Shown: piece after piece, positions 27,248 through 46,205 of the stretch
Layout: every line of letters begins with the position of its first letter
How positions within the stretch are numbered: the stretch's first letter is position 1
From: a phage
Sequence record: PZ721903.1
Direction: 5' to 3' (one strand)
Length of the DNA: 49,628 nt
Notes under the pieces: model-generated
The model's input: only the letters and a program-made list of their open reading frames with translations
Database searches by the model: none
What the model was told of the DNA's origin: nothing
Translations under genes and position numbers: made by a program

Positions 27248-27267
27248 ATAGCACTTTTTGCTAAAAA
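27248..27267 (+). promoter_or_regulatory. palindromic box + -10 (tattat) upstream of the helicase gene
   Basis: atagcactttttgctaaaaa, 22-nt spacer with inverted repeat aacgtttac/gtaaacgtt flanking tattat. Confidence 0.6.
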
Positions 27268-27328: not shown

Positions 27329-29347
27329 GTGACAATGAACATTAAAAAGCAGATTGCATTACTTGGCGAGGACTATATAAAGCGAACTCAGGAGCGATTC
27401 ACTGTCGGTGAGGTTGTTCCTTATCCGTACCAGGTTGTTGCTTATGCTGAGATCGCGAAACGCCTATCAAATTACGAGCATCCATTCTTTGTTAAAGCGT
27501 CAGTATCTGCTGGTAAGACCATCATTTTTGCTATGGTTGCAAAGCAGTGTCAGAAAATGGGCTTAAAAATGCTCGTTCTGGCTCGCCAGGGTGAGATTGT
27601 CGATCAGGATAGCGAGGAGATTGACAACTTTGGGGTAACTAACTCCATATTCTCAGCCTCATTAGGTATTAAGTCCTGCTATTTTCCTATCGTGGTAGGC
27701 TCAGAGGGTACTGTTGCAAATGGCCTCGACAATGAGCTTGCTGATTTCGTCCCGCATGTAATTGGGATCGACGAATGTCACCAGGTGGATTGGGAAGACC
27801 TTGCGCAAGCCATTGAGGGCAAGGAAACAATGGAACAAATGAGGGGCGAGAAGGGAAAAATCATCATGGATGGAGATATTCCCCTGATTGGTAATGATGG
27901 AAAACCTTTGCTTGGGACTAAGCGCAGTCAGTACACAATCGTAATCATGGAAATGATGCGGCGCTGTAAAAAGGTTCACGGTCACGATCTCAGAATATTT
28001 GGTATGACTGGATCTGAATTTCGTGGCGTAGTTCCTATTCTGGTAGAGAATCCGAAAGCATTGGGATTCTGGCGTGAGCGAGTAACTGATATCGACACAA
28101 ACTATCTGATTGAGTTCGGTTCTGTTGTGCCGACAATATTCGGTTCAACAGACGGAGTTCATTACGATCTGGATAAGTTCAAGGCGTCGAGCGAGGACGG
28201 AGTGCAGGACTTTACAGAGAAAGACATGAAGGCTATGGAAGATGAGATCCTTCATGATAAATCTCTTACTCAGCGAATCATGCAAATGGTTGCCAAAAAG
28301 GCTGAAGAGCGTAACGCGGTACTGATTACATGTGCTGGTGTGCGCCACTGCAAAGAGGCAGCGGCAGCACTTCCTCCGGGAAGCACCTATGCAATTATTA
28401 CTGGCGACACAGACAACAAAACGCGCAAGAAGATTCTGGACGATGTAAGGGCCGGAAAAATTAAATACACCTTTCAGGTAATGGCGCTCACTACTGGTGT
28501 TAACGTTCCAAATTGGGATTTCAGTGTCATACTCCGCAAAATAGGGTCGCTCACACTGTTGATTCAACTTTTGGGTAGGGGTATGCGTCTGCTTAAATCC
28601 TGGCAGGTTGCTGAGGGAATGGTTAAGCAGGACCATCTGGTATGGGATTTCGCAGGTACGATGGATGAGTTGGGCCAGCTTTATTTCGATCCGATACTTG
28701 AGCAGGCGCAATTCCAAAAGCGTTTTGAAAACGGCAAAGATCCGAAAACATGTCCGAAATGCGGTTGCGTAAATAGCTTCTATGCTCGACGATGCGTTAA
28801 TGTCATTGATGGTGAACGTTGTGATCATTTCTGGACTTCTCAGGTTTGTGAGGACCAGGTTGACGAGCGCACCGGAAAAATCCTTGTTAAAGGATGCGGC
28901 GCAGAGAATGACGTTGTGGCCAGAGTCTGTCGTTGCTGTGATGTTTCGCTTGTCGATCCTAACCTGAAGTTATCCGGTAAGGCGTACACTAAGAATGACT
29001 GGTATGAAGTAAAGAATTTTGAGGTTACGCTAACCAAAAACCAGAAAGGCATAATATACAAATACACTCTTATTAACGATGATGGTGATGAGTTCAAGGC
29101 GTATGAAAAATTCTTCCCCGAGTCTGACTCTAAGATTTGCGGTACGCTATGGAAAACTAAAGGTGTATTGCCACACGTATCGGATCCTAAAATGCGCCGA
29201 TACTTTATCGGAATGAAGAACGCCATCAAGATTTTGCAATACTCACATCATATTGCTCACCCGGTGCGCGTAACTCATCGTCGCAACCAGAAGAAAGAAG
29301 ATATTATCTCACGAAAAGACTTTGGTATGGAGGATATCCCGGAATGA
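27329..29347 (+). CDS. SF2 DNA helicase with C-terminal zinc-finger region
   Basis: Walker A SAGKT, DEAH-like IDECH box, Cys clusters CPKCGC...C..C near the C-terminus; GTG start 27329 (RBS aagga). Confidence 0.75.
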   Translation: MTMNIKKQIALLGEDYIKRTQERFTVGEVVPYPYQVVAYAEIAKRLSNYEHPFFVKASVSAGKTIIFAMVAKQCQKMGLKMLVLARQGEIVDQDSEEIDNFGVTNSIFSASLGIKSCYFPIVVGSEGTVANGLDNELADFVPHVIGIDECHQVDWEDLAQAIEGKETMEQMRGEKGKIIMDGDIPLIGNDGKPLLGTKRSQYTIVIMEMMRRCKKVHGHDLRIFGMTGSEFRGVVPILVENPKALGFWRERVTDIDTNYLIEFGSVVPTIFGSTDGVHYDLDKFKASSEDGVQDFTEKDMKAMEDEILHDKSLTQRIMQMVAKKAEERNAVLITCAGVRHCKEAAAALPPGSTYAIITGDTDNKTRKKILDDVRAGKIKYTFQVMALTTGVNVPNWDFSVILRKIGSLTLLIQLLGRGMRLLKSWQVAEGMVKQDHLVWDFAGTMDELGQLYFDPILEQAQFQKRFENGKDPKTCPKCGCVNSFYARRCVNVIDGERCDHFWTSQVCEDQVDERTGKILVKGCGAENDVVARVCRCCDVSLVDPNLKLSGKAYTKNDWYEVKNFEVTLTKNQKGIIYKYTLINDDGDEFKAYEKFFPESDSKICGTLWKTKGVLPHVSDPKMRRYFIGMKNAIKILQYSHHIAHPVRVTHRRNQKKEDIISRKDFGMEDIPE

Positions 29348-29760
29348 TTACAGACAAAGGTGATTATTTAGAATTTTACGAGAGAGATCCAAGCGACACT
29401 CGAAAGGAGGACGCTCATCAGGTGGATTGTGTATCCTGGCTGAAATACAATTTTCCTCACCTTCTATTTTGGCACACTGTCAATGAAGGTGAAAAAACAA
29501 TCACATCGGCGCTCAGGGATGAGCAGGCCGGATTACTTAAAGGCGTGTCAGACTTCGTTATCCTGATTGGTGTTAACTCACGATACCCGTTTGCAGCAAT
29601 CGAACTTAAGCGGGTTAATAAGTCAGGCAAAGGAAAGGCGTCACCAGTCAGCGACAAGCAAAGGGAATTTCTCCAAAAGGTCCGGGAGCGTGGCGGCTTC
29701 TCTGCCGTCGCATACGGATTCGGGCAATTCAAGATCGCAATTTACGAAATGATGAAATAG
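29344..29760 (+). CDS. VRR-NUC-like nuclease (putative)
   Basis: 138 aa; DFVIL...ELK...Q motif pattern consistent with a PD-(D/E)xK VRR-NUC domain. Confidence 0.5.
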   Translation: MITDKGDYLEFYERDPSDTRKEDAHQVDCVSWLKYNFPHLLFWHTVNEGEKTITSALRDEQAGLLKGVSDFVILIGVNSRYPFAAIELKRVNKSGKGKASPVSDKQREFLQKVRERGGFSAVAYGFGQFKIAIYEMMK

Positions 29761-29776
29761 CACTTTTTGTTAAAAC
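29757..29776 (+). promoter_or_regulatory. palindromic box upstream of the Dam gene
   Basis: atagcactttttgttaaaac containing the TAG stop of the upstream gene; hairpin, attat, RBS gagagga follow. Confidence 0.6.
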
Positions 29777-29827: not shown

Positions 29828-30541
29828 ATGAAAGACTTTAATGATATCGAAACTATCGACTTTGCAGAAACTGGTTGCTCATTCACTCGCGAAGCAATAG
29901 CATCAGGCGGTTATTATCAGGCATTGAAAACGCCAACCTGCAAAGAGATTTCAGGGCGTCGATACAAGGGGACAAATACCCCTGACGCTGTTCGTGATTT
30001 ATGGTCAACCCCGCGCGAGGTTATCGCATACCTTGAGGGTCGTTACGGAAAATATGATCTAGACGCTGCGGCAAGCGAAGAAAATAAAGTTTGCGAGAAG
30101 TTTTATTCCCAGGAAACAAACTGCTTAAAACGTTGGTGGGGTAAAAATAAGCACGTATGGTTAAATCCTCCTTATAGTCGACCTGATATATTCGTCAAGA
30201 AGGCGATCGAGCAAATGGAGCACAACAATCAGATTGATATTCTGTTGCCTGCCGATAATTCCACAGCGTGGTTTACTGAGGCGAGACAGAACGCGGCTGA
30301 GATTATCTGGATTGAAGCTGACTTGACTGAAGATATCGACGGTAACGAGTACGCCAGATCTGGTCGCCTGGCTTTCATATCCGGTGAAACTGGAAAGGCG
30401 GTTGACGGCAATAACAAGGGTTCGGTAATTTTCATAATGCGCGAACTTAAAGAGGGTGAGACACAGCAAACTCACTATATCCCAATCACAAGCATTTGCC
30501 CTTCGGTGAAAAACAAGCGCGCAAAAGTGAGGAAAGTATGA
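29828..30541 (+). CDS. dam: DNA N6-adenine methyltransferase (phage Dam-like)
   Basis: Catalytic NPPY motif (WLNPPYS) and DLDAAAS region typical of phage N6-adenine methyltransferases. Confidence 0.75.
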   Translation: MKDFNDIETIDFAETGCSFTREAIASGGYYQALKTPTCKEISGRRYKGTNTPDAVRDLWSTPREVIAYLEGRYGKYDLDAAASEENKVCEKFYSQETNCLKRWWGKNKHVWLNPPYSRPDIFVKKAIEQMEHNNQIDILLPADNSTAWFTEARQNAAEIIWIEADLTEDIDGNEYARSGRLAFISGETGKAVDGNNKGSVIFIMRELKEGETQQTHYIPITSICPSVKNKRAKVRKV

Positions 30542-30789
30542 TGAACGAGAAAATGATTCCGGTTAAGTTAACTGATCAAGGTTTATGGCTGCTTTATCGA
30601 GCTACCTGCTGCGAAATCATGGAACAAAACGGATTGACGCAGGATGTTATTGGTTGCGATCTGTGGGAGTTCACTAGCTCTCTTGATATGTCTTTCGATG
30701 AGATAAAAAATGAATACATAGAGAATTGGCCTTCAATCATACAGAGAGACGTAGAGGAACTTAAAGCTGATATGATCGTTCAGCACTAA
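30538..30789 (+). CDS. hypothetical protein
   Basis: ATGA overlap with the Dam stop; RBS gaggaaagt; stop inside a palindromic box copy. Confidence 0.5.
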   Translation: MMNEKMIPVKLTDQGLWLLYRATCCEIMEQNGLTQDVIGCDLWEFTSSLDMSFDEIKNEYIENWPSIIQRDVEELKADMIVQH

Positions 30790-30800
30790 TTGCTAAAACT
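30783..30800 (+). promoter_or_regulatory. palindromic box copy (variant) + TATAGT
   Basis: agcactaattgctaaaac with TAA stop inside; hairpin cccggcgaaagtcggg then tatagt. Confidence 0.55.
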
Positions 30801-30855
30801 ACCCGGCGAAAGTCGGGTATAGTTATTTCATCGAGACGAAATGAGGAATCAAAAG

Positions 30856-31065
30856 ATGGCACGCATTAACGCAAACTTTTTCAATATCGCTCAACAGTCC
30901 GCAAAAATGGCTGTTCATATCACTGACAAGAAAGGCGGCAACTTTGATTGGGATATTGCTATGAACTTCCTTAAAATGGCTTATTACCTCTGCTCAGTCA
31001 AAGATGTTGAGTGTTTTATTGAAAGCGTGGAGAAACCAACCAATGCTGATAAAAAAACAAGGTAA
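30856..31065 (+). CDS. hypothetical protein
   Basis: Preceded by a full cassette (box, hairpin, TATAGT, CATCGAGACGA, RBS gagga). Confidence 0.5.
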   Translation: MARINANFFNIAQQSAKMAVHITDKKGGNFDWDIAMNFLKMAYYLCSVKDVECFIESVEKPTNADKKTR

Positions 31066-31315
31066 ACGAGAGGTTTGGGATCACGCGAAGGAGTGCGGAA
31101 TCTCAGACGATATAGCACTAATAGCAAAATATTTCGATATAAAGGATGTTAGCATCATCTCAAACGGAAAGATTTCATTTATGGAAGATATGCCGAGAAA
31201 AATGCATAGAGTGCCAGCCACCCCATCACTTGAATTTTATCGTGAAGAAGGAAAGAGAATTGAGCGAGAACGAAAAACAGCAAAGAACAACAAGTCTTCC
31301 AGGCTTAAACATTAA
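31043..31315 (+). CDS. hypothetical protein
   Basis: ORF with ATG 31043 behind ggag; overlaps neighbours, boundaries uncertain. Confidence 0.35.
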   Translation: MLIKKQGKREVWDHAKECGISDDIALIAKYFDIKDVSIISNGKISFMEDMPRKMHRVPATPSLEFYREEGKRIERERKTAKNNKSSRLKH

Positions 31316-31547
31316 CGCAGAAGATTATCAGACTATCTGGATCGGAAAAAAGCAGGTTAAGAAAATCCCTTTCTCTGATTGGTTGCCTCCTGACTTCGTT
31401 AATGTGCTTTGCACCATCGGTATGGAACAGGAGTTGCATATAGGTTATTACTCACCAGGTAGAAACAGCATAATGCTTGAGGTTGATGGGAAACTTGTTG
31501 AGTTTAAATCTTCAGATCTCGGATTCTGGTTAAAGGCTGTGGCATGA
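31146..31547 (+). CDS. hypothetical protein (start uncertain)
   Basis: 133 aa ORF overlapping 31043..31315 in another frame; an alternative TTG start at 31260 behind aagga is possible. Confidence 0.3.
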   Translation: MLASSQTERFHLWKICREKCIECQPPHHLNFIVKKERELSENEKQQRTTSLPGLNINAEDYQTIWIGKKQVKKIPFSDWLPPDFVNVLCTIGMEQELHIGYYSPGRNSIMLEVDGKLVEFKSSDLGFWLKAVA

Positions 31548-31625
31548 ATCTTTATTTTGCTGTAGTATTAACACCGCTAATTTCATTTTTAGTAATGTAT
31601 TTCATTATCATGTAAGGATTAAAAT

Positions 31626-32777
31626 ATGTCACAAGCTAAAATCACTACCGAACAACTTGTCGAAGAGCGCATGAACGGCCTAACACTTCGCGAGATCGCG
31701 GAAAAGTACGGTATGCACATTCGAACTGTTGAAGCTCGCCACGCAAAGTTGGCAAAAGAAGGTCACTTCCACGGTAACGAGCATGTTGCTAAGAACGTAC
31801 CGGAAGGATTCATGGTAAAAGGCACATCAACGATGATTCGCGGCGATGGGACCGAGGTGGTGCGCTGGGTTAAGACCGATCAGGACCGTGAGAAGATTGC
31901 AGCAATGATGGAAGCGGCGCGTATTGCATTCTGTGAAGATCTGCCGCGAGCAAAGCCAACTGAGCTACTAACCTCACAAGGGCTTACTACAGCGATGGGT
32001 AAGCTGGCACTCTATCCGGTATTCGATCTTCATATTGGCGCGCTTGCTCATAAGCATGAATGCGGAGAGAACTATTCTACCGATGTAGCGGAAAAAGTGC
32101 TGAGTGACTTCTTTAATTACGCGATCGATATTGCTCCGAACGCAGAGAAGGCTGTTCTGTTAATCGGCGGTGACTTCCTGCACTCTGACGGACTTGATGC
32201 AGTTACTCCGGCAAGCGGCCACGTTCTTGATCAGGATTCACGATATGCTAAATTGGTGCATGTAGCGATTCGATCGGTGCGACGAGCTATAGACAAAATG
32301 CTGACGAAACACAAAGAGGTCGAAGTTCAGGTTATCGAAGGAAACCACGACCAGGCCGGGATGATTTGGTTACGCGCAGCAATGGCAGCATACTATGAAG
32401 ACGAGCCGCGAGTATTCGTTGACGTCAGTCCTATGATTCTGCATAAGACTCGTTGGGGAAATACCTTGTTGGGATACACTCACGGGCACACTATGAAAAA
32501 GGCAGACACGCGACTTGCAGCGATGGCAGCAGATTTCCGATCGGATTTCGGCGAGAGCAAGTATGTGTATACTCATAGCGGGCACTGGCATCACCAGACA
32601 ATCACTGAGCACTCGCTAGGTATTGATGAAGTACACGGTCAGTTAGGCGCGAAAGATGCATACGCAGCACGCGGAGGGTGGCGCTCATATCGCCAGGCGG
32701 CGGTAATTGTTTACGATAAGCAGTTTGGTGAAATCGGTCGATTCATCTATCGTCCAGAAATGACAGGATCGCACTAA
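31626..32777 (+). CDS. calcineurin-like metallophosphoesterase with N-terminal HTH
   Basis: Metallophosphatase motifs DLHIG, GGDFLH, GNHD, HGH, GHWH; N-terminal LTLREIAEKYGM helix-turn-helix-like segment. Confidence 0.7.
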   Translation: MSQAKITTEQLVEERMNGLTLREIAEKYGMHIRTVEARHAKLAKEGHFHGNEHVAKNVPEGFMVKGTSTMIRGDGTEVVRWVKTDQDREKIAAMMEAARIAFCEDLPRAKPTELLTSQGLTTAMGKLALYPVFDLHIGALAHKHECGENYSTDVAEKVLSDFFNYAIDIAPNAEKAVLLIGGDFLHSDGLDAVTPASGHVLDQDSRYAKLVHVAIRSVRRAIDKMLTKHKEVEVQVIEGNHDQAGMIWLRAAMAAYYEDEPRVFVDVSPMILHKTRWGNTLLGYTHGHTMKKADTRLAAMAADFRSDFGESKYVYTHSGHWHHQTITEHSLGIDEVHGQLGAKDAYAARGGWRSYRQAAVIVYDKQFGEIGRFIYRPEMTGSH

Positions 32778-32788
32778 TTGATAAAAAC
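32770..32788 (+). promoter_or_regulatory. palindromic box copy (degenerate) + TATAGT
   Basis: cgcactaattgataaaaac, hairpin cccgaagggattcggg, tatagt, CATCGAAAACaaagaggat. Confidence 0.45.
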
Positions 32789-32840
32789 GCCCGAAGGGAT
32801 TCGGGTATAGTAACCACATCGAAAACAAAGAGGATATATC

Positions 32841-33017
32841 ATGAAGCGAGTTAAGTGCATCCGAAATGACTCCAAAACACTTCCATTCCGCGTAAATCAG
32901 ATCTATAGTGTTGGTTATGATTTCGGTGGGGGATTATTTGAGATTTACGACGGGCGAGGTTCAGCAATTCAGGCTCCTCTGAACGGTAGCTATCTGGAAT
33001 TTATTGCGATAGATTAA
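32841..33017 (+). CDS. small hypothetical protein (58 aa)
   Basis: Below the 60-aa track cutoff; preceded by a complete cassette and RBS aagagga; followed by terminator 33039-33071. Confidence 0.4.
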   Translation: MKRVKCIRNDSKTLPFRVNQIYSVGYDFGGGLFEIYDGRGSAIQAPLNGSYLEFIAID

Positions 33018-33038
33018 CAATATCATTCATCACCTTAC

Positions 33039-33071
33039 AGGCTGGCATGATTTACATGCTAGCCTTTTTGC
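33039..33071 (+). terminator. terminator upstream of the lysis cassette
   Basis: aggctggcatg...catgctagcct stem followed by ttttt. Confidence 0.6.
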
Positions 33072-33135
33072 GTTGTATCAAGTAAATTTGAAGGTTAAAA
33101 TCGACTCACTTGTTCAAAAAATATATGGTGAGATT

Positions 33136-33351
33136 ATGAAAGAATTTTTAACAGCAGCTACGTCAAGCACGGGCGGTGCTTCATTAGTCGGGGCCGCTAC
33201 CGGGCAACTTTATATTGCTGGCGCTACATTCATTTGCTTTCTGCTTTTTGGTGCCTGGGGTGCATACTGGAAGTATCGTGATAGTAAGGCAATTCAGGAA
33301 GCGTTAAACGATGGCGATCTAAATAAGGCGCTTAAGATCAGGGGGAGATAA
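33136..33351 (+). CDS. holin (possible pinholin)
   Basis: 71 aa with hydrophobic core [21 protein letters not shown] and charged C-terminus; directly upstream of the SAR endolysin with ATGA overlap; start ATG 33136 rather than the TTG at 33073. Confidence 0.6.
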
Positions 33352-33839
33352 TGAGCTTAAAAAATAACGTTATAGGCGCATCGATCGGGGCTGCTTTGAC
33401 GTTGACACCCACCCTACTGGAACGAATCGAAGGTATAGAATACGAGGTGTATTACGATATAGCCGGAGTCCCTACCGTATGCAGCGGAATAACCGGGCCG
33501 GACGTCATACCTGGTAAGAAATACACTAAGCGAGAATGCGATGCATTGCTGATAAAACATATCGGCGTCGCTCAGCGATACGTTGACAAAAAGGTGAATG
33601 TTGATATTCCGGTAACGATGCGCGCGTCACTGTACAGCTTCACTTTCAACGTTGGAACTGGCGCGTTCGGATCTTCTACAATGCTTAAGCTAATAAATCA
33701 GAGTAAGCACAAGGAAGCGTGCAATCAGTTATGGCGATGGGTATACTACTACAACCCAAAAACCAAAAAGCGAGAAGTGTCTAGAGGACTCAAGAACCGA
33801 CGCGCTGAAGAATACGCGTATTGCGTTAAGGAATTATGA
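33351..33839 (+). CDS. SAR endolysin (T4 lysozyme-like, GH24)
   Basis: N-terminal signal-anchor-release-like segment [17 protein letters not shown] followed by the E...D...T catalytic region ([26 protein letters not shown]). Confidence 0.8.
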
Positions 33840-34240
33840 TGAAACTGAAGAAAACGTGCATTGCGATTACAGTGGCTGTTGGTGTTATTTCTCTATCCGG
33901 TTGCTCTACGGCATCTGCCCTGAGCGGTTTAATCGGATCTAAACCGGAAGTTACAGCACAAATCGGAGAGGAGAACACAAAGCAATTAGCAGGAGTAACC
34001 GCAAAATCCGAAGATAAGCGAGATGTTAAAGTTGAGAAGTCCAATGTAGGAAAGATTGACTCTTCCTTGAAGAAGTCAATTGAAGTGTCAACCATTAAGG
34101 CTAACACGGTTAACGCTGAAAGCATCACAATAACAAAGCCAGAAAACTGGTACGATGCAATTGTAGGATGGACTCTCGTTTTCATTGGCCTATTGCTGGT
34201 TTATTTTTCAATTCGTAAGGACGAAAAAAAAGGAGGCTAA
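33836..34240 (+). CDS. unimolecular spanin (lipoprotein with C-terminal TMD)
   Basis: Lipobox ISLSGCS at the N-terminus and C-terminal [25 protein letters not shown], the architecture of T1 gp11-type u-spanins. Confidence 0.7.
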
Positions 34241-34256
34241 GCCTCCTTTTCTTTTA
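34223..34256. terminator. bidirectional terminator between spanin (+) and leftward early operon (-)
   Basis: aaaaaaaaggaggctaagcctccttttctttt: stem aggaggc/gcctcct with an A-run and a T-run; the spanin stop TAA sits in the loop. Confidence 0.65.
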
Positions 34257-34472
34257 TGCATCTGCCCACATGTAACTCTCGTTAGTGAGTTTTGCATATT
34301 CTCGAACTTCAAACTCGCAAGTGTCACCGTACATCTCAGCAACCTTCTTCTCGTTAGCTACCGCTGATTCTTCGGTCCACCCATCAGCTTTACTGTAAAG
34401 AGTAGGAATCTCACTGCTAGTACCGTTTGAGTGATTGTAAACGCGAACTACTAAAAATTTGTTAGCCGTGAT
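34254..34472 (-). CDS. hypothetical protein lacking a canonical start codon
   Basis: Open frame of about 72 codons downstream of a complete leftward cassette and RBS gaagga; the codon at start position is ATC (34472-34470); no ATG/GTG/TTG in frame until 20 codons before the stop. Confidence 0.3.
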   Translation of the reverse strand: MTANKFLVVRVYNHSNGTSSEIPTLYSKADGWTEESAVANEKKVAEMYGDTCEFEVREYAKLTNESYMWADA

Positions 34473-34531
34473 GTTTTCCTTCAGGTCGTTTCGTTTCGAT
34501 GAAACAAATATACCCGATGCGAGATCGGGTG

Positions 34532-34550
34532 TTTTAACAAAAAGTGCTAT
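34532..34550 (-). promoter_or_regulatory. palindromic box copy, leftward cassette
   Basis: ttttaacaaaaagtgctat on +; on the - strand followed by a hairpin, tatatt and CATCGAAACGAAACGA. Confidence 0.6.
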
Positions 34551-34658
34551 TTGTACCTTTTTACGTGAAGGAGTAACCCCCCCTCCTTGTCGCAAAGATT
34601 ATGCTCGCTTTCGTTACTGGCCCTCATTGAAGTGAGTAACAGACTCAACAACCCTTGC

Positions 34659-35066
34659 TCAAATTCTTCTTTCGTAAGCTGGAGCCTTGCGCACAATTCG
34701 ACGTTCCGATCTATCAATGTTTCTACGTTCGCCAAACAAATCTTCATCACTCATCTCTCCAATGTGCATCATTTCCCACGTATACCGATTGTTGTAGCCA
34801 TCAATACACATCAGCTTCATCATTACCGGGCGCTTAATCTTTCCCTTGCACCAGTAAACTCCATCCTTGCGATCTAAGTAACCCTCAGTCACGCAACGAG
34901 CGCAAAACTCCTTAGATAGCGCGCTTGTAAATTCACGGCGAGTCATTCCAGCAGCCTTAGCAAATCGCTCACTTTCCTTGTGGGCGTATATAAATTTCGC
35001 TATGTGCTGTCGAGTGTATTTGTCGTAACCTTCGCAGAATATGAACAGATCTAGAAGAAGCAGCAT
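34659..35066 (-). CDS. hypothetical protein
   Basis: 135 aa ORF in the leftward early operon. Confidence 0.5.
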   Translation of the reverse strand: MLLLLDLFIFCEGYDKYTRQHIAKFIYAHKESERFAKAAGMTRREFTSALSKEFCARCVTEGYLDRKDGVYWCKGKIKRPVMMKLMCIDGYNNRYTWEMMHIGEMSDEDLFGERRNIDRSERRIVRKAPAYERRI

Positions 35067-35070
35067 ATCA

Positions 35071-36639
35071 TTAACCCATCAGCCGAGGATTAATGAAAAC
35101 AATATCATCAATCCGGCAAGTGTAGTTCATCTCTTCGAGCGTGATAAGAAGACTATCGATTCGCTCAGATACTTTCTGTTGACCGTTGAAAGGCGTAACG
35201 TTCCGGCACTTTGCAACGATGCTATGAATAGGTGCGCGGCCTTTGTTTTTCTTCGCGATCTCAGTGATAACATCAATCAGCTTACGAGATTCAGCCTCAT
35301 CACCAGCATACCCGGCAGCGCTGGCAGACGACAGATAAGTCCTGGAAAGCTCATTGAAGATCATGATTGCTTCCTGCATTGTTTCAAGGTCAATCTCACG
35401 GTTGGAACGGTTCGGTGATTCACCCTCCCAATTCTTGATCGTGTGGAGAACTGAAGCAATACGCAAGGCGTGCTTATCGAACTTGCCGAGATGACCGCGT
35501 AGCATTGAGTGAGAGTATTTCCCACCTGCGGCGAAATCCGGTTCCATCGCCTGACGCGCAAGGTTTAATTCACGCATAGCATTACGGCTTACAGAGAGAA
35601 CAACGTTTTCCTCCTTCATGATGTTGTGAACGAGTCTGTAATATTTGCTAACCAGTCCTCGATCGACTTCTTTATACAATGCATCACCATTTTCATCACA
35701 AAGAATACGAGTACCTAAAAGCGGTTCCTCGCGAACTAACAGGAAGCGCTCAGATACACCGATACCTCGTTGGCCTGCGTCCATGATACCTTTGATTGTT
35801 TCATCCTGCGCAATTACGCAGATCGAGCCAACCGGGCAAAGAGACAAGTTGTTGTCCTGATTGGAGCGAGCGACCTCCATATGGTTTTTATCCCACGCCT
35901 TAAGAATAAGCTCACTGTTAGATTTCTTATCTGAACCTCCATACGTAAGACCGAGCAATGTATTGATTGCCGTTGCCTCATCAGAAATTACGGAAAAGTG
36001 GCCCTGAACAGCGGCTACTTTCGCAAGACCTTCAGGTGTAGGATCTGATACAGCAAAAACAATATCAGCCATCTTTTTGATCTTCTCTTCCAGTTTTTCT
36101 TTGTCCTCGTATAGTGCCGCAGTCGTGTTTCCTTTAGGATCATTCTTGATTTCCTTCTCAACCTGGCGTAGCTGACTGGTTAAACGAATACGTTCCTTTT
36201 TGCGCTCTTCATTCAGTCGCTGAATCTCCGCACGCATAGGTGTAATCGCCGCTGAGTTAATCGCGGACTTACCTGTTGATGGTGGCTGGCTGATTACCAT
36301 GTAAAGCGCGGTCGGCTGTTCCTCTCCGTGATATTGCACCCAAAACTTCCCGAGCATCGCGGCTGAGATGCAACCTATAAAATGAGCATACGCGGATGAA
36401 ACCGGGAACTGGACTGATTCAGCTTTTGCTTTTGCATATTCGAATACCAGGTTATCGCCACCTAACGAAATCAGAGGGAACTTATCGTTGCCGCTATTGA
36501 TATCGATCGGATCTTGCCAAAATGAAACTGAGTCACCATAGCTGTTTTCACGAATTGCGATCGCCACCGGATTAACTCCAGTGCTATTGGCGATCTCAAT
36601 AATCTGTTGGTAATTCAGTTTTGGCTTAATATTAAACAT
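35071..36639 (-). CDS. P-loop NTPase (putative replication-associated ATPase/helicase)
   Basis: Start at MFNIKPK behind RBS aaggag; Walker A-like SQPPSTGKS; 522 aa. Confidence 0.45.
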   Translation of the reverse strand: MFNIKPKLNYQQIIEIANSTGVNPVAIAIRENSYGDSVSFWQDPIDINSGNDKFPLISLGGDNLVFEYAKAKAESVQFPVSSAYAHFIGCISAAMLGKFWVQYHGEEQPTALYMVISQPPSTGKSAINSAAITPMRAEIQRLNEERKKERIRLTSQLRQVEKEIKNDPKGNTTAALYEDKEKLEEKIKKMADIVFAVSDPTPEGLAKVAAVQGHFSVISDEATAINTLLGLTYGGSDKKSNSELILKAWDKNHMEVARSNQDNNLSLCPVGSICVIAQDETIKGIMDAGQRGIGVSERFLLVREEPLLGTRILCDENGDALYKEVDRGLVSKYYRLVHNIMKEENVVLSVSRNAMRELNLARQAMEPDFAAGGKYSHSMLRGHLGKFDKHALRIASVLHTIKNWEGESPNRSNREIDLETMQEAIMIFNELSRTYLSSASAAGYAGDEAESRKLIDVITEIAKKNKGRAPIHSIVAKCRNVTPFNGQQKVSERIDSLLITLEEMNYTCRIDDIVFINPRLMG

Positions 36640-36694
36640 CACAATAAACTCCTTGGTTGACGGTGTAAATGATACACCGCCAATGGTACACGCG

Positions 36695-36712
36695 TTTTGC
36701 AAAAAGTGCTAT
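36695..36712 (-). promoter_or_regulatory. palindromic box copy, leftward
   Basis: ttttgcaaaaagtgctat; overlaps the stop of 36716..37132 and precedes the P-loop gene. Confidence 0.55.
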
Positions 36713-36715
36713 TGG

Positions 36716-37132
36716 TTATAAGTATTTGGCCTCAAAGGTTGTGCCGTCAGCTATGCTAAAACCGATCTCTTCGCGAAACAATGTCCAACGGCAACCATCC
36801 TCATCAAAAATATAACCAGCTACGCCGCCGAGAGCGCGACCGCTTTCCACCTGGTAACGCTTGCCAAGTTTGAATGATTTTTTCATCGGATTACGATGGT
36901 CAAGCCCGGTGCACTTGAGCGTCTTTGTTTTCAACTCAGCGAACTTCGCGAAGAAGATTTCATCAGATCCGTGAATCTGTAATTCATCATGCTTTTCAAG
37001 TTTTAAATACTTTCCGCATTTTAATTTTACTTCGCGAGTGCCATCATAGCGCTCACGACCTTTGTACAGGTTGTTTACTTCAAATCCTGTGATTTTATCT
37101 GCGGAAGTACATTTAAGTTTGATGGATTTCAT
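36716..37132 (-). CDS. hypothetical protein
   Basis: Preceded on the - strand by a complete cassette including CCAATCAGGAG. Confidence 0.55.
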   Translation of the reverse strand: MKSIKLKCTSADKITGFEVNNLYKGRERYDGTREVKLKCGKYLKLEKHDELQIHGSDEIFFAKFAELKTKTLKCTGLDHRNPMKKSFKLGKRYQVESGRALGGVAGYIFDEDGCRWTLFREEIGFSIADGTTFEAKYL

Positions 37133-37195
37133 TGCGTTAGCTCCTGATTGGTTATCTTGAATAAGGTCACTTTATCAAATGACCTTACGGCAATA

Positions 37196-37212
37196 TTAAC
37201 AAATCGTGCTAT
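37196..37212 (-). promoter_or_regulatory. palindromic box copy, leftward cassette
   Basis: ttaacaaatcgtgctat; on the - strand followed by hairpin, TGaTAAAGT, CCAATCAGGAG and ATG 37132. Confidence 0.6.
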
Positions 37213-37425
37213 TTACCAGGGAATATAATCGTCGTCGTCATTATCACCAGTATCATCGCCTGGCATATCGAAGTCGGGATTATATTCACTTTCTGCGTCC
37301 ATATCCATATTCCCTAGCGCGTCGTCAAGCGTAATTTCTTTATATGCAACCTTGATACACCATTCCGCACCAAGCCCGGCATCGAGCGCTGCAAAATAAC
37401 GAGTCCAGAAATTATCCTGTTCCAT
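37213..37425 (-). CDS. small highly acidic protein (candidate DNA mimic)
   Basis: 70 aa with about 22 Asp/Glu, ending DNDDDDYIPW; RBS tggag. Confidence 0.5.
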   Translation of the reverse strand: MEQDNFWTRYFAALDAGLGAEWCIKVAYKEITLDDALGNMDMDAESEYNPDFDMPGDDTGDNDDDDYIPW

Positions 37426-37428
37426 TAA

Positions 37429-37653
37429 TTAGCTCCATGAATTAATGTAAATCGAGTTATCCTCAAGCGTTGCGCGAACATCCGCATCTGTTGCATTTAT
37501 CAGTCGAGATCCCGGCACACTTCCGATAACGCTATTTCCGTTACGCGTCTTAGTTACCGTCATTGAAATAAAACCGGAAGACTTATCCATCTTGATAACT
37601 ACACGGCCTTTTGCGTTAAGATGCTTGATGATATTCTCAACTTTAATGCTCAT
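37429..37653 (-). CDS. hypothetical protein
   Basis: 74 aa ORF behind a cassette and RBS aagga. Confidence 0.5.
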   Translation of the reverse strand: MSIKVENIIKHLNAKGRVVIKMDKSSGFISMTVTKTRNGNSVIGSVPGSRLINATDADVRATLEDNSIYINSWS

Positions 37654-37714
37654 TTTTAATTCCTTTGTTTTGTTTGGTGTGTGAGTAATATACCTTACTC
37701 ACTATTTATTGTCT

Positions 37715-37731
37715 TTAGCAATTAGTGCTAT
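37715..37731 (-). promoter_or_regulatory. palindromic box copy, leftward
   Basis: ttagcaattagtgctat upstream (on the - strand) of 37429..37653. Confidence 0.55.
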
Positions 37732-37874
37732 CAGTACTCGGAAATTACTTGGCACTCCTTGATTGTTCCACCTAGAACTACTTTCTGCATCATTGCTTTT
37801 TGGTGACTATCGTAAACGCGAACATTTTTTACGCTGTTAAATTTGCCAGTATAGAAAGTGTGAATATAAATCAT
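37731..37874 (-). CDS. small hypothetical protein (47 aa)
   Basis: ATGA overlap with the stop of 37871..38191; stop codon lies in box copy 37715-37731. Confidence 0.25.
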   Translation of the reverse strand: MIYIHTFYTGKFNSVKNVRVYDSHQKAMMQKVVLGGTIKECQVISEY

Positions 37875-38191
37875 TTTTTACCGTCCCAGGTTTGATACGC
37901 CGTCACAAGGTTAATGCTATGGTCAAACTCGTCAATGCTAAGCGAACCTATTCGAACCAGTTCTTTATCATGCTTAATATCAATCATCCGGCTATATGGA
38001 TGACCTGGCACGTATTTGAACAGTCGCTTGCTGTCAGCAATGTCGGCGTTGATTCCATAGAATCGGCCTACTGCCGCCTTCACGCGCTCCATGATGTTTT
38101 TTTCGTGGATTGCTGCCGCGTTATTAAGCGCCGCAACCGTGCTTCCGTTAATCTTCGGTGACTTCGTTGTGATTTTATAAGTGTGGTTCAT
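37871..38191 (-). CDS. hypothetical protein
   Basis: Start set at MNHTYK behind RBS gggggaa. Confidence 0.45.
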   Translation of the reverse strand: MNHTYKITTKSPKINGSTVAALNNAAAIHEKNIMERVKAAVGRFYGINADIADSKRLFKYVPGHPYSRMIDIKHDKELVRIGSLSIDEFDHSINLVTAYQTWDGKK

Positions 38192-38207
38192 TATTCCCCC
38201 TAACCAG

Positions 38208-38408
38208 TCAGGATAGCTTTCTCGCTTCATCAATGATAACAGGTTCAAGACGCTCAAGTCTAACGCGGAACGAGTTCATAAATCCTTCGTTGTTCTTCAG
38301 TAGTTCGAATGCGTCTGTAGCTTCAATGGCGCTATTCCCCATGTAGGCAATTACTTTTTTCTGAGTCTTACGTGAGATCGCCACTACGCGGTAAATATTA
38401 TCACTCAT
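38208..38408 (-). CDS. hypothetical protein
   Basis: Start at MSDNIY behind RBS aaagagg; 8-nt ATGAGTGA overlap with the upstream gene. Confidence 0.45.
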   Translation of the reverse strand: MSDNIYRVVAISRKTQKKVIAYMGNSAIEATDAFELLKNNEGFMNSFRVRLERLEPVIIDEARKLS

Positions 38409-38772
38409 ACAATGCCTCTTTAACACGATCCGCTACACATGAGTTAACGGTGATTGAATAGTTAGCCACGCCCCATAATGCAATATTGCCAAGCTCGGTA
38501 CGCATTGATGGATTGTTTAGCTGAATGATTGTCTCGCCAGTATCTTTATCGACGAAGCGAGACACGCCAGAATGGTCCACCACGCGCGTTACTCGGTTCA
38601 CGCACTCCATTGCATCACTTACACCATAATAGGCGGTTAGGGCGGCTCTCACGGCCTTCTCTTGCTTGTTGTAAATCTTGCGAGCGATGTTCTCGATCGC
38701 TACGCTTTCTTTCTCGTCAGTCTGGATTGCCGTGCTGGCTGAGAAGTCCAGATCTGTGAACTGCTTAAACAT
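38401..38772 (-). CDS. hypothetical protein
   Basis: Start at MFKQFT behind RBS gagga; complete cassette upstream. Confidence 0.5.
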   Translation of the reverse strand: MFKQFTDLDFSASTAIQTDEKESVAIENIARKIYNKQEKAVRAALTAYYGVSDAMECVNRVTRVVDHSGVSRFVDKDTGETIIQLNNPSMRTELGNIALWGVANYSITVNSCVADRVKEALYE

Positions 38773-38830
38773 GATTATTTCCTCGTTTGCTGCTGATGGG
38801 ATGACTATACCAGCCATCCCGGATGCGCGT

Positions 38831-38847
38831 TTAGCAAAAAGTGCTAT
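38831..38847 (-). promoter_or_regulatory. palindromic box copy, leftward cassette
   Basis: ttagcaaaaagtgctat; on the - strand followed by a hairpin around TGgTATAGT and RBS gagga. Confidence 0.6.
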
Positions 38848-39033
38848 TTAGAATTTTACTTCCTCAACAAGCTCAACCATTTTATAACCCAGGCGATATG
38901 AGTCGCCGAACAACAACAGACCCATAAATTCATCGTTGGTTATCGACTCCTTACCAACAGTTTTAAGTTCTCCGTTGTGAATCACAGTATCGCCGATCTT
39001 GATTTCTGATTTATGCACTAATTTCGTTTTCAT
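38848..39033 (-). CDS. hypothetical protein
   Basis: 61 aa ORF in operon context. Confidence 0.45.
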   Translation of the reverse strand: MKTKLVHKSEIKIGDTVIHNGELKTVGKESITNDEFMGLLLFGDSYRLGYKMVELVEEVKF

Positions 39034-39048
39034 TTGTTAGCCTGTTAA

Positions 39049-39234
39049 TTAAAAGAACGCTACATAGTTTGCAATACCTTTTGCATCGTCGTTAGGCATC
39101 GCCTTGACAGCCAGGTCATAACCAGCCTCTACCTTCTGCTTTGCTGATTCTTCGTTGTATCCCCAAATAACCAGGATTTTAACTACGTTTTCTTTGTTCA
39201 GAACTTTAAGGTATTTAGTGATGCGACGTGCCAT
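39049..39234 (-). CDS. hypothetical protein
   Basis: Start at MARRITK behind gaggaaaaacaaa; complete cassette upstream. Confidence 0.5.
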   Translation of the reverse strand: MARRITKYLKVLNKENVVKILVIWGYNEESAKQKVEAGYDLAVKAMPNDDAKGIANYVAFF

Positions 39235-39293
39235 TTTGTTTTTCCTCAATCTCGTTTCGATGAGGTAATTATGCCAAATCGCACCGATCGAGT

Positions 39294-39312
39294 TTTAACA
39301 AAAAGTGCTATT
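39294..39312 (-). promoter_or_regulatory. palindromic box copy, leftward cassette
   Basis: ttttaacaaaaagtgctat; contains the methyltransferase stop; on the - strand followed by cataat and CATCGAAACGAG. Confidence 0.6.
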
Positions 39313-39999
39313 TGCGATCGCTTTGAAAAATCCACGAGGAGATAAGGAACGTATCAGCTTCGTTTTGGCAGACTTGCCGCCCAGCTTGTTTTGCTGTGCA
39401 GAGTACCCGTCAGGCAGGTTTACAGGCTTCCTTTCTGGCATGACAAAGTCGTCCGAAGTCCAAAGACAAGTTTTCTTCGGGTAAGCATCGCGCGGCGCAA
39501 TATACATCGGGAACCAGGGGTGTGCGTCATTCTCAGGAAGATAGCCGCCATACTCCCAGGGATTGAAAGTGTGGTCAGCCTTTCGCCAGGCTGATGACAG
39601 GACGCTAACCGGATTCTCAATGATGTAAGTCACACCCAGGCTATCACCGATGTTCGCGGCAATCCGGGCGGTGGCAACAGCTTTCTCCTGGAATAGCGGA
39701 TCACGTTTACGCTTGCTGGCAAAGTGTCGAGCACCACTAACGGCCAGGTCAGTGCACGGCGGGAAGGCCATAATGAAATCCGGCTTGCCATACACACCCG
39801 CGATCGCATCACGTTCGAACGTTTCATCAATGAACACGTTCACATACTCAATGTTGGGATGCTCTACCCGGGCATTGTACTTTGCATAATCTCCGTGATC
39901 GGCTCCGTCAAAGTTGAAGCACATCACTTTATGACCTTGCTTTGCCAGTTCATGACCAGCCAGGCCCGAGCCGTCGAATAGTGACCAGATTAATTTCAT
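39295..39999 (-). CDS. DNA cytosine-5 methyltransferase-like protein
   Basis: Motif I-like FDGSG, PC motif FPPCTDLA and ENP motif in the expected order for C5-MTases; short (234 aa), so the target-recognition region is minimal. Confidence 0.5.
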   Translation of the reverse strand: MKLIWSLFDGSGLAGHELAKQGHKVMCFNFDGADHGDYAKYNARVEHPNIEYVNVFIDETFERDAIAGVYGKPDFIMAFPPCTDLAVSGARHFASKRKRDPLFQEKAVATARIAANIGDSLGVTYIIENPVSVLSSAWRKADHTFNPWEYGGYLPENDAHPWFPMYIAPRDAYPKKTCLWTSDDFVMPERKPVNLPDGYSAQQNKLGGKSAKTKLIRSLSPRGFFKAIANSTFC

Positions 40000-40208
40000 T
40001 TCGTTACCTCCTGGAAAACAGTTTGTCCGCTATTGGTCAGGAAGCGCCCGATCTTATTCATTGACCGGAACACGCCGATCTGATTCTGATGATTGTCAGT
40101 CGCGAAGTAACCGCCATCAATAAGGTAGATTTCATACACTGATTGATTCGTGAAGCTGTCAGTGCTGACGCTAACACATCGTACGGTACATTCAAATTCT
40201 GGTTCCAT
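39996..40208 (-). CDS. hypothetical protein (first gene of leftward early operon)
   Basis: Preceded by a cassette with CCAATCAGAGGA RBS; ATGA coupling to the next gene. Confidence 0.5.
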   Translation of the reverse strand: MEPEFECTVRCVSVSTDSFTNQSVYEIYLIDGGYFATDNHQNQIGVFRSMNKIGRFLTNSGQTVFQEVTK

Positions 40209-40268
40209 TGCCTGAGTCCTCTGATTGGTTGATGTGATGAATCATACCCTGCCGACCTGGCTGAGTCG

Positions 40269-40285
40269 TTAGCAAAAAATGCTAT
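40269..40285 (-). promoter_or_regulatory. palindromic box copy, leftward early promoter
   Basis: ttagcaaaaaatgctat; on the - strand followed by TATGATTCATCACATCAACCAATCAGAGGA and ATG 40208. Confidence 0.6.
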
Positions 40286-40476
40286 TCCAATAATTGCTCA
40301 TTATTCCATCAATAGCGGAATAGGTGGAATAATTCTGATTGCGATTGATTGCAAATGATGAAACGTGATTATTGCATGGTTTTCAACAGTTGGTTGATTT
40401 GTTGCTTAGATTGCAATGATTGTGAGAGGGGGGGGAATCTAGTGTTGCCCGGTTCGCCTGGTAATCATCTCCATTT

Positions 40477-40493
40477 TTAGCAAAAAGTGCTAT
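40477..40493 (-). promoter_or_regulatory. palindromic box copy, leftward, in control region 2
   Basis: ttagcaaaaagtgctat about 200 nt upstream of the previous copy; no ORF between them. Confidence 0.5.
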
Positions 40494-40896: not shown

Positions 40897-41412
40897 ATGA
40901 GCAATACCAATCAGGAATTAAAAATCACCGATATGATTCGCCTAACCTGCGACGCAATGTATCGCGACAAAGGCATGAGTGAGTTCTCTTTCGTGGCTGA
41001 TGATATGGCCCTGGAAGGCGCACGATTCTACTTCCGTGGCCAGGAGGTAAGCGATAGCGATCTTGAATCTGCCGCTGCCGGATGGGTGGACCAGAACCAG
41101 GGTGAGGTGGAGAAGCGATTCAAGTCTGCTTTCATTACGCCAATCATTACCCGGCACTTTTGCAAGTATGGCAAGGTGGCAAAGGTGAAGGTAGGCCGGA
41201 ATGACGCTGCAATCACAATGATAACGGTTATCGTTACCGACGAAGAGATTCCCGTGAAGAAGCGCCGCAGCCGGAAAAAAGTTAGCCTGGCCGACTGCCT
41301 GGATTCGTTTGATGTTGATGTTGGCAAGCTATCGGATAGCGAGTTAATGGTTCGCGACGTGAATGAGATCGTACGCCAGATGAAAGCACATATCGAAAAG
41401 TGCGGGCTGTAA
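40897..41412 (+). CDS. hypothetical early protein
   Basis: 171 aa, RBS aagagga; first gene of the rightward early operon. Confidence 0.55.
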   Translation: MSNTNQELKITDMIRLTCDAMYRDKGMSEFSFVADDMALEGARFYFRGQEVSDSDLESAAAGWVDQNQGEVEKRFKSAFITPIITRHFCKYGKVAKVKVGRNDAAITMITVIVTDEEIPVKKRRSRKKVSLADCLDSFDVDVGKLSDSELMVRDVNEIVRQMKAHIEKCGL

Positions 41413-41426
41413 CGCTGATAGGTGAA

Positions 41427-41445
41427 ATAGCACTTTTTGTTAAAG
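41427..41445 (+). promoter_or_regulatory. palindromic box + tattat
   Basis: atagcactttttgttaaag, hairpin cccggtcgagcggatcggg, tattat. Confidence 0.55.
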
Positions 41446-41502
41446 CCCGGTCGAGCGGATCGGGTATTATCTTCTCATTGACACGATACAGAGGAATCGA
41501 AG

Positions 41503-41697
41503 ATGGAAACGCAAATTGACGTAGTGGTTGTTCAGCGAGACTCAACTCATGAAAAGGGTCTGTTCAAGAAAGGAACCGAAATCACGATCGACCTTGAGGA
41601 TATGGTTGCGTATCACTCTGGCCTCACTTGGAACGTGGTGCGCGTAGGCAGCGACTACAAACTCAAAGGCTTTAACACTTACTTTGCGGAGGTTTAA
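41503..41697 (+). CDS. hypothetical protein
   Basis: Cassette upstream; RBS gagga. Confidence 0.5.
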   Translation: METQIDVVVVQRDSTHEKGLFKKGTEITIDLEDMVAYHSGLTWNVVRVGSDYKLKGFNTYFAEV

Positions 41698-41699
41698 TT

Positions 41700-42170
41700 A
41701 TGGCGACAATTACCGTATTTCTTGCTAAAGATGAGCTTGATGGCGAAATGTCATTCTTCGCGTTTGAGCATAAAACCGGCTCGCACTGGCACACTTACAG
41801 CCATTACACGGTTATCTCAATCGAAGCGTACGACGGCGAACTGCTCACTGATAAACTGAGTAATTTCATTGAAGCCGTTAAAGCTAGCGGCGGCTGCGAG
41901 TGGAAGGAAGATCACGAAGTTATGCGAATGTTTGAGATGGTCAATCCGGTTCGCCTTGAGTCGTTCGAGCTTGATGCTAATGTGACTATCAAGGTGAGAA
42001 AGTCGGGTGAGTTATTGCCAGGGATGCGTGTACTGACTGGTTACTCTGGCCGTAAGGTGTGGCGCACTGTATCCAAGATTCGCCAGCGCTCGGCAACATG
42101 CTATAGCGTATTCTTTGATGATGGTTGGAATATGATGTCCGGTAGTGAGGTAAAGTATCTCACCAAATAG
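41700..42170 (+). CDS. hypothetical protein
   Basis: 156 aa; stop TAG lies in box copy 42167. Confidence 0.5.
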   Translation: MATITVFLAKDELDGEMSFFAFEHKTGSHWHTYSHYTVISIEAYDGELLTDKLSNFIEAVKASGGCEWKEDHEVMRMFEMVNPVRLESFELDANVTIKVRKSGELLPGMRVLTGYSGRKVWRTVSKIRQRSATCYSVFFDDGWNMMSGSEVKYLTK

Positions 42171-42186
42171 CACGAATTGTTAAAAC
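42167..42186 (+). promoter_or_regulatory. palindromic box + hairpin-embedded TATAGT
   Basis: atagcacgaattgttaaaac; 22 nt; TGcTATAGT inside ggggta...tacccc; CATCGAAACGA; CCAATCAGAGGAAT. Confidence 0.65.
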
Positions 42187-42248
42187 CTGATCGGGGTATC
42201 TTGCTATAGTTACCCCATCGAAACGAGATACCAATCAGAGGAATAACC

Positions 42249-42479
42249 ATGTCAATCGTCAAGAACCAGCAAGCCATCGATTCAACCAACAACAACCGCT
42301 TTGCTATTTTCATCACTCGCGACAACAAGCGTTTTGCGGTCAAGGTAGTACCGGGTGGATACAATACATACATGGAAGGTAACGGAAAATGGGTTCGGTG
42401 TGACAACCTCTCAAACTTCCTGGTCTGGAATGCAGAACTCCAGGGATTTGATGATATCAGCACTTTAATTGAGGAGTAA
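42249..42479 (+). CDS. hypothetical protein
   Basis: Complete cassette upstream (box, hairpin around TATAGT, CATCGAAACGA, CCAATCAGAGGAAT). Confidence 0.5.
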   Translation: MSIVKNQQAIDSTNNNRFAIFITRDNKRFAVKVVPGGYNTYMEGNGKWVRCDNLSNFLVWNAELQGFDDISTLIEE

Positions 42480-42484
42480 TAATC

Positions 42485-42712
42485 ATGCCACGTTACAGCA
42501 ACCTAACTCAACTAACCCGCGTCAACGGGCACATGATCCCGGCTAAATCTACTCACTGCGCGAAAGGCGCAAAGCACGGATTATATTTCAAGTGGCGCGG
42601 CCAATGGAACTTCACAGCTGTGAATAATTTCTACATGCGAGTTCCAGGTGATGACCCGCAATCAGTAGTAGAAAACTCAATCGGTGACAACAAGATCGAG
42701 GTACTAAAATGA
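42485..42712 (+). CDS. hypothetical protein
   Basis: 75 aa ORF in operon. Confidence 0.45.
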   Translation: MPRYSNLTQLTRVNGHMIPAKSTHCAKGAKHGLYFKWRGQWNFTAVNNFYMRVPGDDPQSVVENSIGDNKIEVLK

Positions 42713-43190: not shown

Positions 43191-43206
43191 CACTTTTTGT
43201 TAAAAA
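43187..43206 (+). promoter_or_regulatory. palindromic box + hairpin-embedded TATAGT
   Basis: atagcactttttgttaaaaa; TATAGT within ggggtt...aacccc; CATCGACAACGA. Confidence 0.65.
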
Positions 43207-46141: not shown

Positions 46142-46205
46142 TTGCTCAAGGGTATTTGATAGAATGCCCTTCGTTGAGTTAAGCAACCAATCAGAGGAAT
46201 AAATC

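Follow-up and report, generated by a model that had tools for sequence, protein, structure and literature searches.

Two stand-alone DNA methyltransferases in a T1-like phage: T1 Dam and a minimal Dcm-like cytosine enzyme, probably with an anti-restriction role

The phage DNA of record PZ721903.1, which is 49,628 nucleotides long (this whole stretch is referred to below as the window), carries genes for two DNA methyltransferases, an N6-adenine enzyme of the phage T1 type (dam) and a short Dcm-like C5-cytosine enzyme (dcm). Both open reading frames (ORFs) lie where an earlier note, made from the letters of this DNA alone, had placed them (Table 1). The two genes are about 9 kb apart on opposite strands with unrelated genes between them (exonuclease, holin, endolysin, spanin and a DUF3987 helicase) and are therefore two separate genes rather than a single locus. 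The 12 kb around both genes match 472 phage records, headed by Tunavirus-type (T1-like) coliphages, among them IME18 and phi2013, with an identity of about 95%, and in local alignment phage T1 is collinear with most of the window from the small terminase gene onward (87-95% identity). Taken with these best matches, the collinearity indicates that the window represents the genome, complete or nearly so, of a Tunavirus (T1-like, Drexlerviridae).

Table 1. Positions of the methyltransferase genes, their motifs and neighbouring features in the window, with the basis of each assignment
Feature	Position	Strand	Basis
Phage T1-type Dam, N6-adenine DNA methyltransferase, 237 aa	29828..30541	+	PF05869, TIGR01712, PADLOC oMTase, T1 ST20 identity
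NPPY catalytic motif IV of Dam, residues 113-116	30164..30175	+	motif location in ORF
Short Dcm-like C5-cytosine DNA methyltransferase, 234 aa	39295..39999	-	phrog_757, motifs, predicted fold
Motif I FDGSG of short Dcm, residues 8-12, AdoMet binding	39964..39978	-	motif location, conservation in homologues
Motif IV Pro81-Cys82 of short Dcm, catalytic nucleophile (PPC = 80-82)	39754..39759	-	motif location, conservation; C82 mutated in K42 Dcm (bioRxiv 10.1101/2023.08.16.553469)
Motif VI ENP of short Dcm, residues 128-130	39610..39618	-	motif location, conservation in homologues
VRR-NUC domain protein (PD-(D/E)xK-type), 68 nt upstream of Dam	29344..29760	+	PF08774 at 4.7e-14
Promoter-like repeated element copy, directly upstream of Dam start codon	29757..29816	+	sequence match
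1.38-kb accessory cassette (orf61, orf66/DUF7421, dcm, orf70), absent from T1	38849..40227	-	alignment to T1; two element copies as bounds
orf70, 70-aa ORF (phrog_16851)	39996..40208	-	stop overlaps dcm start (ATGA)
orf66 (Pfam DUF7421, 1.5e-41)	39049-39249	-	downstream of dcm
orf61	38848-39033	-	downstream of dcm
18-nt element copies, examples	27248-27265(+), 29757-29774(+), 34533-34550(-), 38830-38847(-), 39294-39311(-)	both	sequence match
18-nt element copies, further examples	40268-40285(-), 40476-40493(-), 41427-41444(+), 43187-43204(+)	both	sequence match

The adenine methyltransferase

The product of dam matches the Pfam family PF05869 with 233.6 bits (1.4e-69; cut-off 28.1) and the NCBIfam equivalog TIGR01712, 'phage N-6-adenine-methyltransferase', with 237.7 bits (4.4e-71; cut-off 97.05). 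Furthermore, the orphan-methyltransferase model (oMTase) PDLC03721 of PADLOC was matched at 237/237 positions (3e-172). With scores so far above the cut-offs, the NPPY motif from which the earlier note had recognised the enzyme is no chance motif. The protein had there been called Dam-like, and the N6_N4_Mtase profile (PF01555) had been proposed for its identification. A Pfam search at E<=0.1 returned no family besides PF05869, which excludes both PF01555 and PF02086, the alpha-class family of the E. coli and T4 Dam enzymes. The term 'Dam-like' is therefore apt as to name and function but not as to family: this is the phage T1/HP1-type family PF05869/TIGR01712, with which E. coli Dam shares its name and probably its target. 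A sequence search of the PDB with Dam gave chance-level matches only (E about 1).

The identity of the enzyme is settled by comparison with the Dam of phage T1 (T1 ST20; REBASE M.EcoT1Dam). The two proteins are of equal length, share the NPPY motif and are identical at 235/237 residues (99%), the difference between them being two conservative substitutions only, I138M and T212V. By this comparison the window's Dam is T1 Dam, for practical purposes the same enzyme. T1 Dam has been known since the 1980s. It is reported to methylate GATC (Auer & Schweiger 1984; Schneider-Scherzer et al. 1990). Searches of the available literature returned no usable methylome or digestion data on T1-like phages and none on the specificity of T1 Dam. 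The Dam of phage KarlJaspers, which belongs to another subfamily, is 67% identical to that of the window.

The short cytosine methyltransferase and its family

The product of dcm carries the motifs FDGSG, PC and ENP, which the earlier note had recognised as being in C5-methyltransferase order, and this reading has stood: motifs I (FxGxG), IV (Pro-Cys) and VI (ENV-type glutamate) follow one another as in canonical C5 enzymes. In 50 homologues of 55-95% identity, residues G10, S11, G12, P80, C82, E128, N129, P130 and K175 are invariant and K176 is conserved in at least 90%. The protein matches phrog_757, 'DNA methyltransferase', at 2.4e-84. Its family comprises 4838 homologues among 90%-identity clusters, nearly all of them 225-260 aa long, or 1936 clusters at 50% identity (E<=1e-3), and is present in 1518 of 50,697 phage records. 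The carriers include T1-like and Klebsiella Drexlerviridae, Dhillonvirus, Kagunavirus, large myoviruses of 135-170 kb, and Vibrio and Arthrobacter phages. An identical protein is encoded by phage vB_Henu5_2, and the dcm product of phage LeonhardEuler, 94% identical to that of the window, bears the GenBank label 'Dcm-like C5 cytosine methyltransferase' that is routine for close relatives. To judge from these searches the short Dcm is a firm member of a large family of its own and is remote in sequence from the canonical enzymes.

Further evidence comes from the predicted structure. A confident AlphaFold2 model, built on the alignment of 50 homologues, reached a predicted local distance difference test score (pLDDT) of 91.7 and a predicted template modelling score (pTM) of 0.89. 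When this model was used in a Foldseek search, 31/31 best matches were to DNMT3A/B, and the best structural matches overall (DNMT3A/B and M.HhaI) are DNA enzymes. The model thereby assigns to the short Dcm the fold of a C5-methyltransferase catalytic domain. In BFVD the fold also matches one segment (suffix _1 or _2) of two long proteins from some uncultured Caudovirales, A0A6J5SE15 with 1397 aa and A0A6J5NPY6 with 1126 aa, of which one carries the annotation 'Helicase/UvrB, N-terminal'; such a fusion architecture is absent from the window.

Canonical C5 enzymes possess a target-recognition domain of 80-130 residues between motifs VIII and IX. The spacing of the motifs was compared with that in E. 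coli Dcm by means of regular expressions, as hhalign proved too weak for mapping them: between the profile of the family and the one sequence of E. coli Dcm it aligned motif IV alone, with negligible probability. The distances from motif I to IV (73 residues in the short Dcm against 84 in E. coli Dcm), IV to VI (47 in both) and VI to VIII (46 against 50) are similar in the two proteins, whereas motif VIII (PKKT, residues 174-177) is separated from a motif IX-like block (RSLSPRG, residues 217-223) by approximately 43 residues as against 126 in E. coli Dcm. The intervening segment is modelled as a loop and short helices. The claim of the earlier note that a protein of only 234 aa has little room for a target-recognition domain was thus borne out. 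The RSLSPRG block resembles motif IX of E. coli Dcm (RRLTPRE), and by this resemblance in sequence it is read as motif IX rather than as a divergent motif X. The short Dcm is a minimal C5-cytosine methyltransferase in which the core is kept, namely FDGSG, Pro-Cys82, Glu128-Asn-Pro, the Lys175-Lys176 strand and the RSL(S/T)PRG helix.

Activity of an orthologous enzyme has been demonstrated in work on phage K42, which is 95.4% identical to KarlJaspers (Bas06). In all four K42 escapers of the retron Ec86 (Eco1) that were isolated (4/4), the 711-bp dcm gene or the DNA just upstream of it carried lesions (bioRxiv 10.1101/2023.08.16.553469). When expressed alone from a plasmid, K42 Dcm was toxic only in the presence of Ec86; it raised the 5-methylcytosine (5mC) content of the Ec86 multicopy single-stranded DNA (msDNA), as measured by LC-MS (mass spectrometry coupled to liquid chromatography), and set off the retron. 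Activity was lost in a C82A/E128A/K175A/K176A mutant, which did not act as a trigger (bioRxiv 10.1101/2023.08.16.553469). This result has since been cited as established (PMC12916289). The KarlJaspers Dcm (711 bp, 236 aa) and the Dcm of the window (234 aa) share 57% identity over 229 residues, that is along their entire length, and C82, E128, K175 and K176 occupy the same places in the window and KarlJaspers/K42 proteins. By analogy with this orthologue, the short Dcm is a known enzyme that works without a phage partner; it presumably serves against restriction and is at the same time a liability. Few C5-cytosine methyltransferases with experimental support are smaller than those of its family. 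The earlier note had judged the short protein the more unusual of the two enzymes. This holds for its architecture; the protein is not new, being present in so many phage records and having an orthologue that has been studied experimentally.

The same evidence bears on whether the 234-aa protein is a DNA 5mC transferase at all. It might instead be an inactive remnant, an RNA (Dnmt2-like) enzyme or a transferase of another group, for example carboxymethyl from carboxy-S-adenosylmethionine (Cx-SAM). The invariance of all catalytic positions across the family argues against decay, and the K42 orthologue raised 5mC in DNA in a manner dependent on C82/E128/K175/K176. In addition, the closest structural matches are enzymes of DNA, and the annotation of T1, which covers most of the window at the identity given above, includes no CmoA-like or other modification gene. 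Any of these other identities is very unlikely.

Orphan status, the dcm cassette and a repeated element

No restriction enzyme model from Pfam, PHROGs or PADLOC was matched in any neighbour of dam or dcm. This agrees with the earlier note, in which no adjacent restriction nuclease had been found, with the caveat that the VRR-NUC protein, which has a restriction-endonuclease-like fold, is encoded 68 nt upstream of dam. One of the methyltransferases could conceivably be half of a restriction-modification pair, its unrecognised nuclease being either this VRR-NUC protein or a small ORF beside dcm, where the stop of orf70 overlaps the dcm start codon and orf70 and dcm are for this reason probably co-transcribed. 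The start of the VRR-NUC gene, however, overlaps the stop of the helicase gene, an annotated terminator lies between VRR-NUC and Dam in T1, and VRR-NUC gave no PADLOC match. It was therefore rejected as a restriction partner of Dam and belongs to the helicase module. The ORFs beside dcm, at 61-70 aa, are too small for a nuclease; they are missing beside the LeonhardEuler dcm, KarlJaspers has them on the other arm of its genome, and orf70 was not found next to dcm in either phage. The small ORFs were also considered as recognition subunits and rejected, as they do not accompany dcm in LeonhardEuler and lie elsewhere in KarlJaspers, and as the K42 enzyme works alone. A lytic phage, moreover, gains nothing by cutting GATC or CCWGG sites that abound in its own genome. 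A restriction-modification pair is scarcely credible here, and the two enzymes are best regarded as orphans.

Comparison with the T1 genome showed that T1 lacks dcm, which the window carries on a 1.38-kb insertion. The gene is therefore an accessory one, and dam by contrast belongs to the conserved backbone. The flanks of the cassette (38790-38848 and 40228-40286) are direct copies of a repeated element, both of which align to a single T1 copy (48694-48752), and the element itself supplies the last five codons of dcm (NSTFC*). This arrangement suggests that accessory genes may be exchanged by recombination at the repeated elements. The products of orf66 and orf61, downstream of dcm, show 91-93% protein identity to those of KarlJaspers genes at 22279-22677 (+), on the opposite, rightward arm of a phage that is otherwise much more divergent. 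Such identity points to a recent horizontal movement of the orf66-orf61 pair, as a two-gene cassette, between Drexlerviridae subfamilies.

The repeated element contains an 18-nt sequence, ATAGCACTTTTTGYTAAA, of which the window has 20 copies (<=3 mismatches) where 0.13 would be expected. Eleven copies were aligned, and most of them have a TGGTATAAT-like (extended -10-like) box some 22 nt further on, with a ribosome-binding site after it. The orientation of the element follows the direction of the genes in the two divergent early arms. The element resembles a family of phage promoters or regulator-binding sites placed at the boundaries of gene cassettes; for a standard -35/-10 pair a spacing of 22 nt would be too great. 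Both dam and dcm lie downstream of a promoter-like copy of their own, in the early/replication arms. Elsewhere, three HNH homing-endonuclease genes interrupt the T1 genome, and at the sites of two of these, ST15 and ST8, the window has no DNA (window 31876-32804 and 36713-36718 against T1 41072-42546 and 46159-46623). This is consistent with ST15 and ST8 being mobile insertions in T1.

Probable methylation of phage DNA and comparison with known systems

It is most probable (we put the probability at about 0.88) that T1 Dam and the minimal C5 enzyme are two autonomous S-adenosylmethionine (AdoMet)-dependent DNA methyltransferases that serve as an anti-restriction measure by modifying the DNA of the phage itself as it replicates. 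Dam would methylate adenine at N6 in the GATC sites of the phage DNA. The short Dcm would most likely use Cys82 to attack C6 of a flipped-out cytosine and transfer a methyl group from AdoMet to form 5-methylcytosine without a phage partner, chemistry that is proposed because of the conserved motifs and the K42 mutant; its target is probably CCWGG-like sites. Both enzymes would act on replicating phage DNA, given that each gene lies behind a promoter-like element in the early/replication arms. The DNA of the progeny would then carry N6-methyladenine (m6A) and 5mC whatever the dam/dcm status of the host, for example on dcm- B strains, and methylation-sensitive restriction in the next host would be blunted. 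The cost would be that defence systems sense these activities, as retron Ec86 senses a Dcm-like enzyme. It has been reported that Drexlerviridae abundantly encode N6-adenine and C5-cytosine methyltransferases, which were proposed to counter restriction (BASEL study, PMC8594841). Anti-restriction is the accepted role of such methyltransferases in this phage family (PMC8594841; bioRxiv 10.1101/2023.08.16.553469), and the suggestion of the earlier note that two methyltransferases without a partner nuclease serve this end is in keeping with it.

There are 236 GATC and 106 CCWGG sites in the genome. CCWGG is not avoided, with an observed/expected ratio of 1.00 in the window against 0.83 in T1, which lacks dcm, in what is a single comparison of closely related genomes. 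GATC is mildly under-represented, at 0.76 of the Markov expectation. The difference in CCWGG between the window and T1 is in the expected direction, but site avoidance, considered as a clue to specificity, proved uninformative. Some hexamers are strongly depleted over the whole window: for CTGCAG (PstI) 4.9-9.7 sites are expected and 0 present, for GAATTC (EcoRI) 10-14 are expected and 2 present. GATC and CCWGG are not strongly depleted, and the scarcity of the hexamers suggests avoidance of sites whose enzymes Dam and Dcm could not block.

The main role of one or both enzymes might instead lie in phage DNA transactions such as replication timing, escape from host mismatch repair or from Dam-directed processes, packaging or gene expression, protection from restriction being incidental. 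The position of dam suits this proposal. It lies inside a replication/recombination module, after the helicase and VRR-NUC genes and before the exonuclease gene, and the order helicase, VRR-NUC, Dam is common to the window, T1 and KarlJaspers; the mild scarcity of GATC also speaks for it. The dcm gene, on the other hand, cannot be a core-function gene, because it is absent from T1, and its variable neighbours are typical of counter-defence cargo. The literature cited above also treats both enzymes as anti-restriction functions, and we think it unlikely that protection is incidental.

A number of observations weigh against the anti-restriction reading or against parts of it. The DNA_methylase profile (PF00145) that had been suggested for the short protein scored 12.3 bits against a threshold of 22 (E 0.11), over residues 6-105 (motifs I-IV) only; within the family PF00145 gave weak matches in 33/50 members, the best at 1.3e-6, and no NCBIfam model was matched by the short Dcm. 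PDB sequence searches, both with the protein alone and with the 50-sequence profile, were likewise at chance level (E about 1), and for this reason the tie to solved C5-methyltransferases is drawn from the predicted fold. The protein has no QxRxR motif VIII, P-K175-K176-T occupying the corresponding strand instead, and no GN(A/S)V motif X, the chain ending 11 residues past the RSLSPRG block. A CCWGG specificity for the short family is drawn from analogy with host Dcm and from msDNA mutants in which effector binding could just as well be disturbed. In the dcm+ host MG1655 carrying an empty vector the msDNA contained little 5mC (bioRxiv 10.1101/2023.08.16.553469), and the phage Dcm is therefore not a simple duplicate of host Dcm. 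Finally, in the BASEL study no simple pattern linked the methyltransferases of Drexlerviridae to restriction resistance and most of these phages were very restriction-sensitive (PMC8594841), which makes the degree of protection uncertain.

Some of these points might be accounted for if the short family were truly minimal, with a choice of substrate unlike that of host Dcm, be it hairpin or single-stranded DNA, a shorter or relaxed motif, or recognition as a DNMT3-like oligomer. A different substrate choice would explain why the phage Dcm, and not a dcm+ host, methylates Ec86 msDNA and triggers the retron, and also why carriage of dcm shows no correspondence with resistance to individual restriction systems. 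We regard this possibility as doubtful.

Both methyltransferases are real, stand-alone and already described. As a discovery they carry little weight, T1 Dam being long known and hundreds of phage genomes, of Drexlerviridae and others, already bearing an annotation of the short dcm. What novelty remains is in the enzymology of a minimal C5-methyltransferase, that is its recognition sequence and its mode of DNA recognition. Sensitivity to retron Ec86, a native element of E. coli BL21, is predicted for a phage with dcm, and this bears on the choice of host for propagation and on the design of phage therapy.

Among known systems, the KarlJaspers dcm is likewise an orphan, in the leftward early arm of a Drexlerviridae genome. 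The two phages belong to different subfamilies, the window to Tunavirinae and KarlJaspers to Tempevirinae, and the genes that flank dcm differ. Residues 196-205 read DGYSAQQNKLGG ('GYSxQ') in the window and DKDNPGWAKTGG ('DNPGW') in KarlJaspers; both variants recur in the family, and given this difference an identical specificity of the two enzymes is not guaranteed. The canonical enzymes E. coli Dcm (M.EcoKDcm, CCWGG), M.HhaI and M.HaeIII (PF00145) have 472 or approximately 330 residues as against the 234 of the short Dcm. The catalytic domains of DNMT3A and DNMT3B share only 13-16% identity with it. DNMT3 enzymes have the smallest recognition regions, and their appearance as the best structural matches fits the little room for a recognition domain in the short Dcm. 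They keep motif X, have a catalytic domain of about 280 aa and read CpG as oligomers. By analogy, DNA recognition through the approximately 40 residues available in the short Dcm could possibly involve oligomerisation as in DNMT3.

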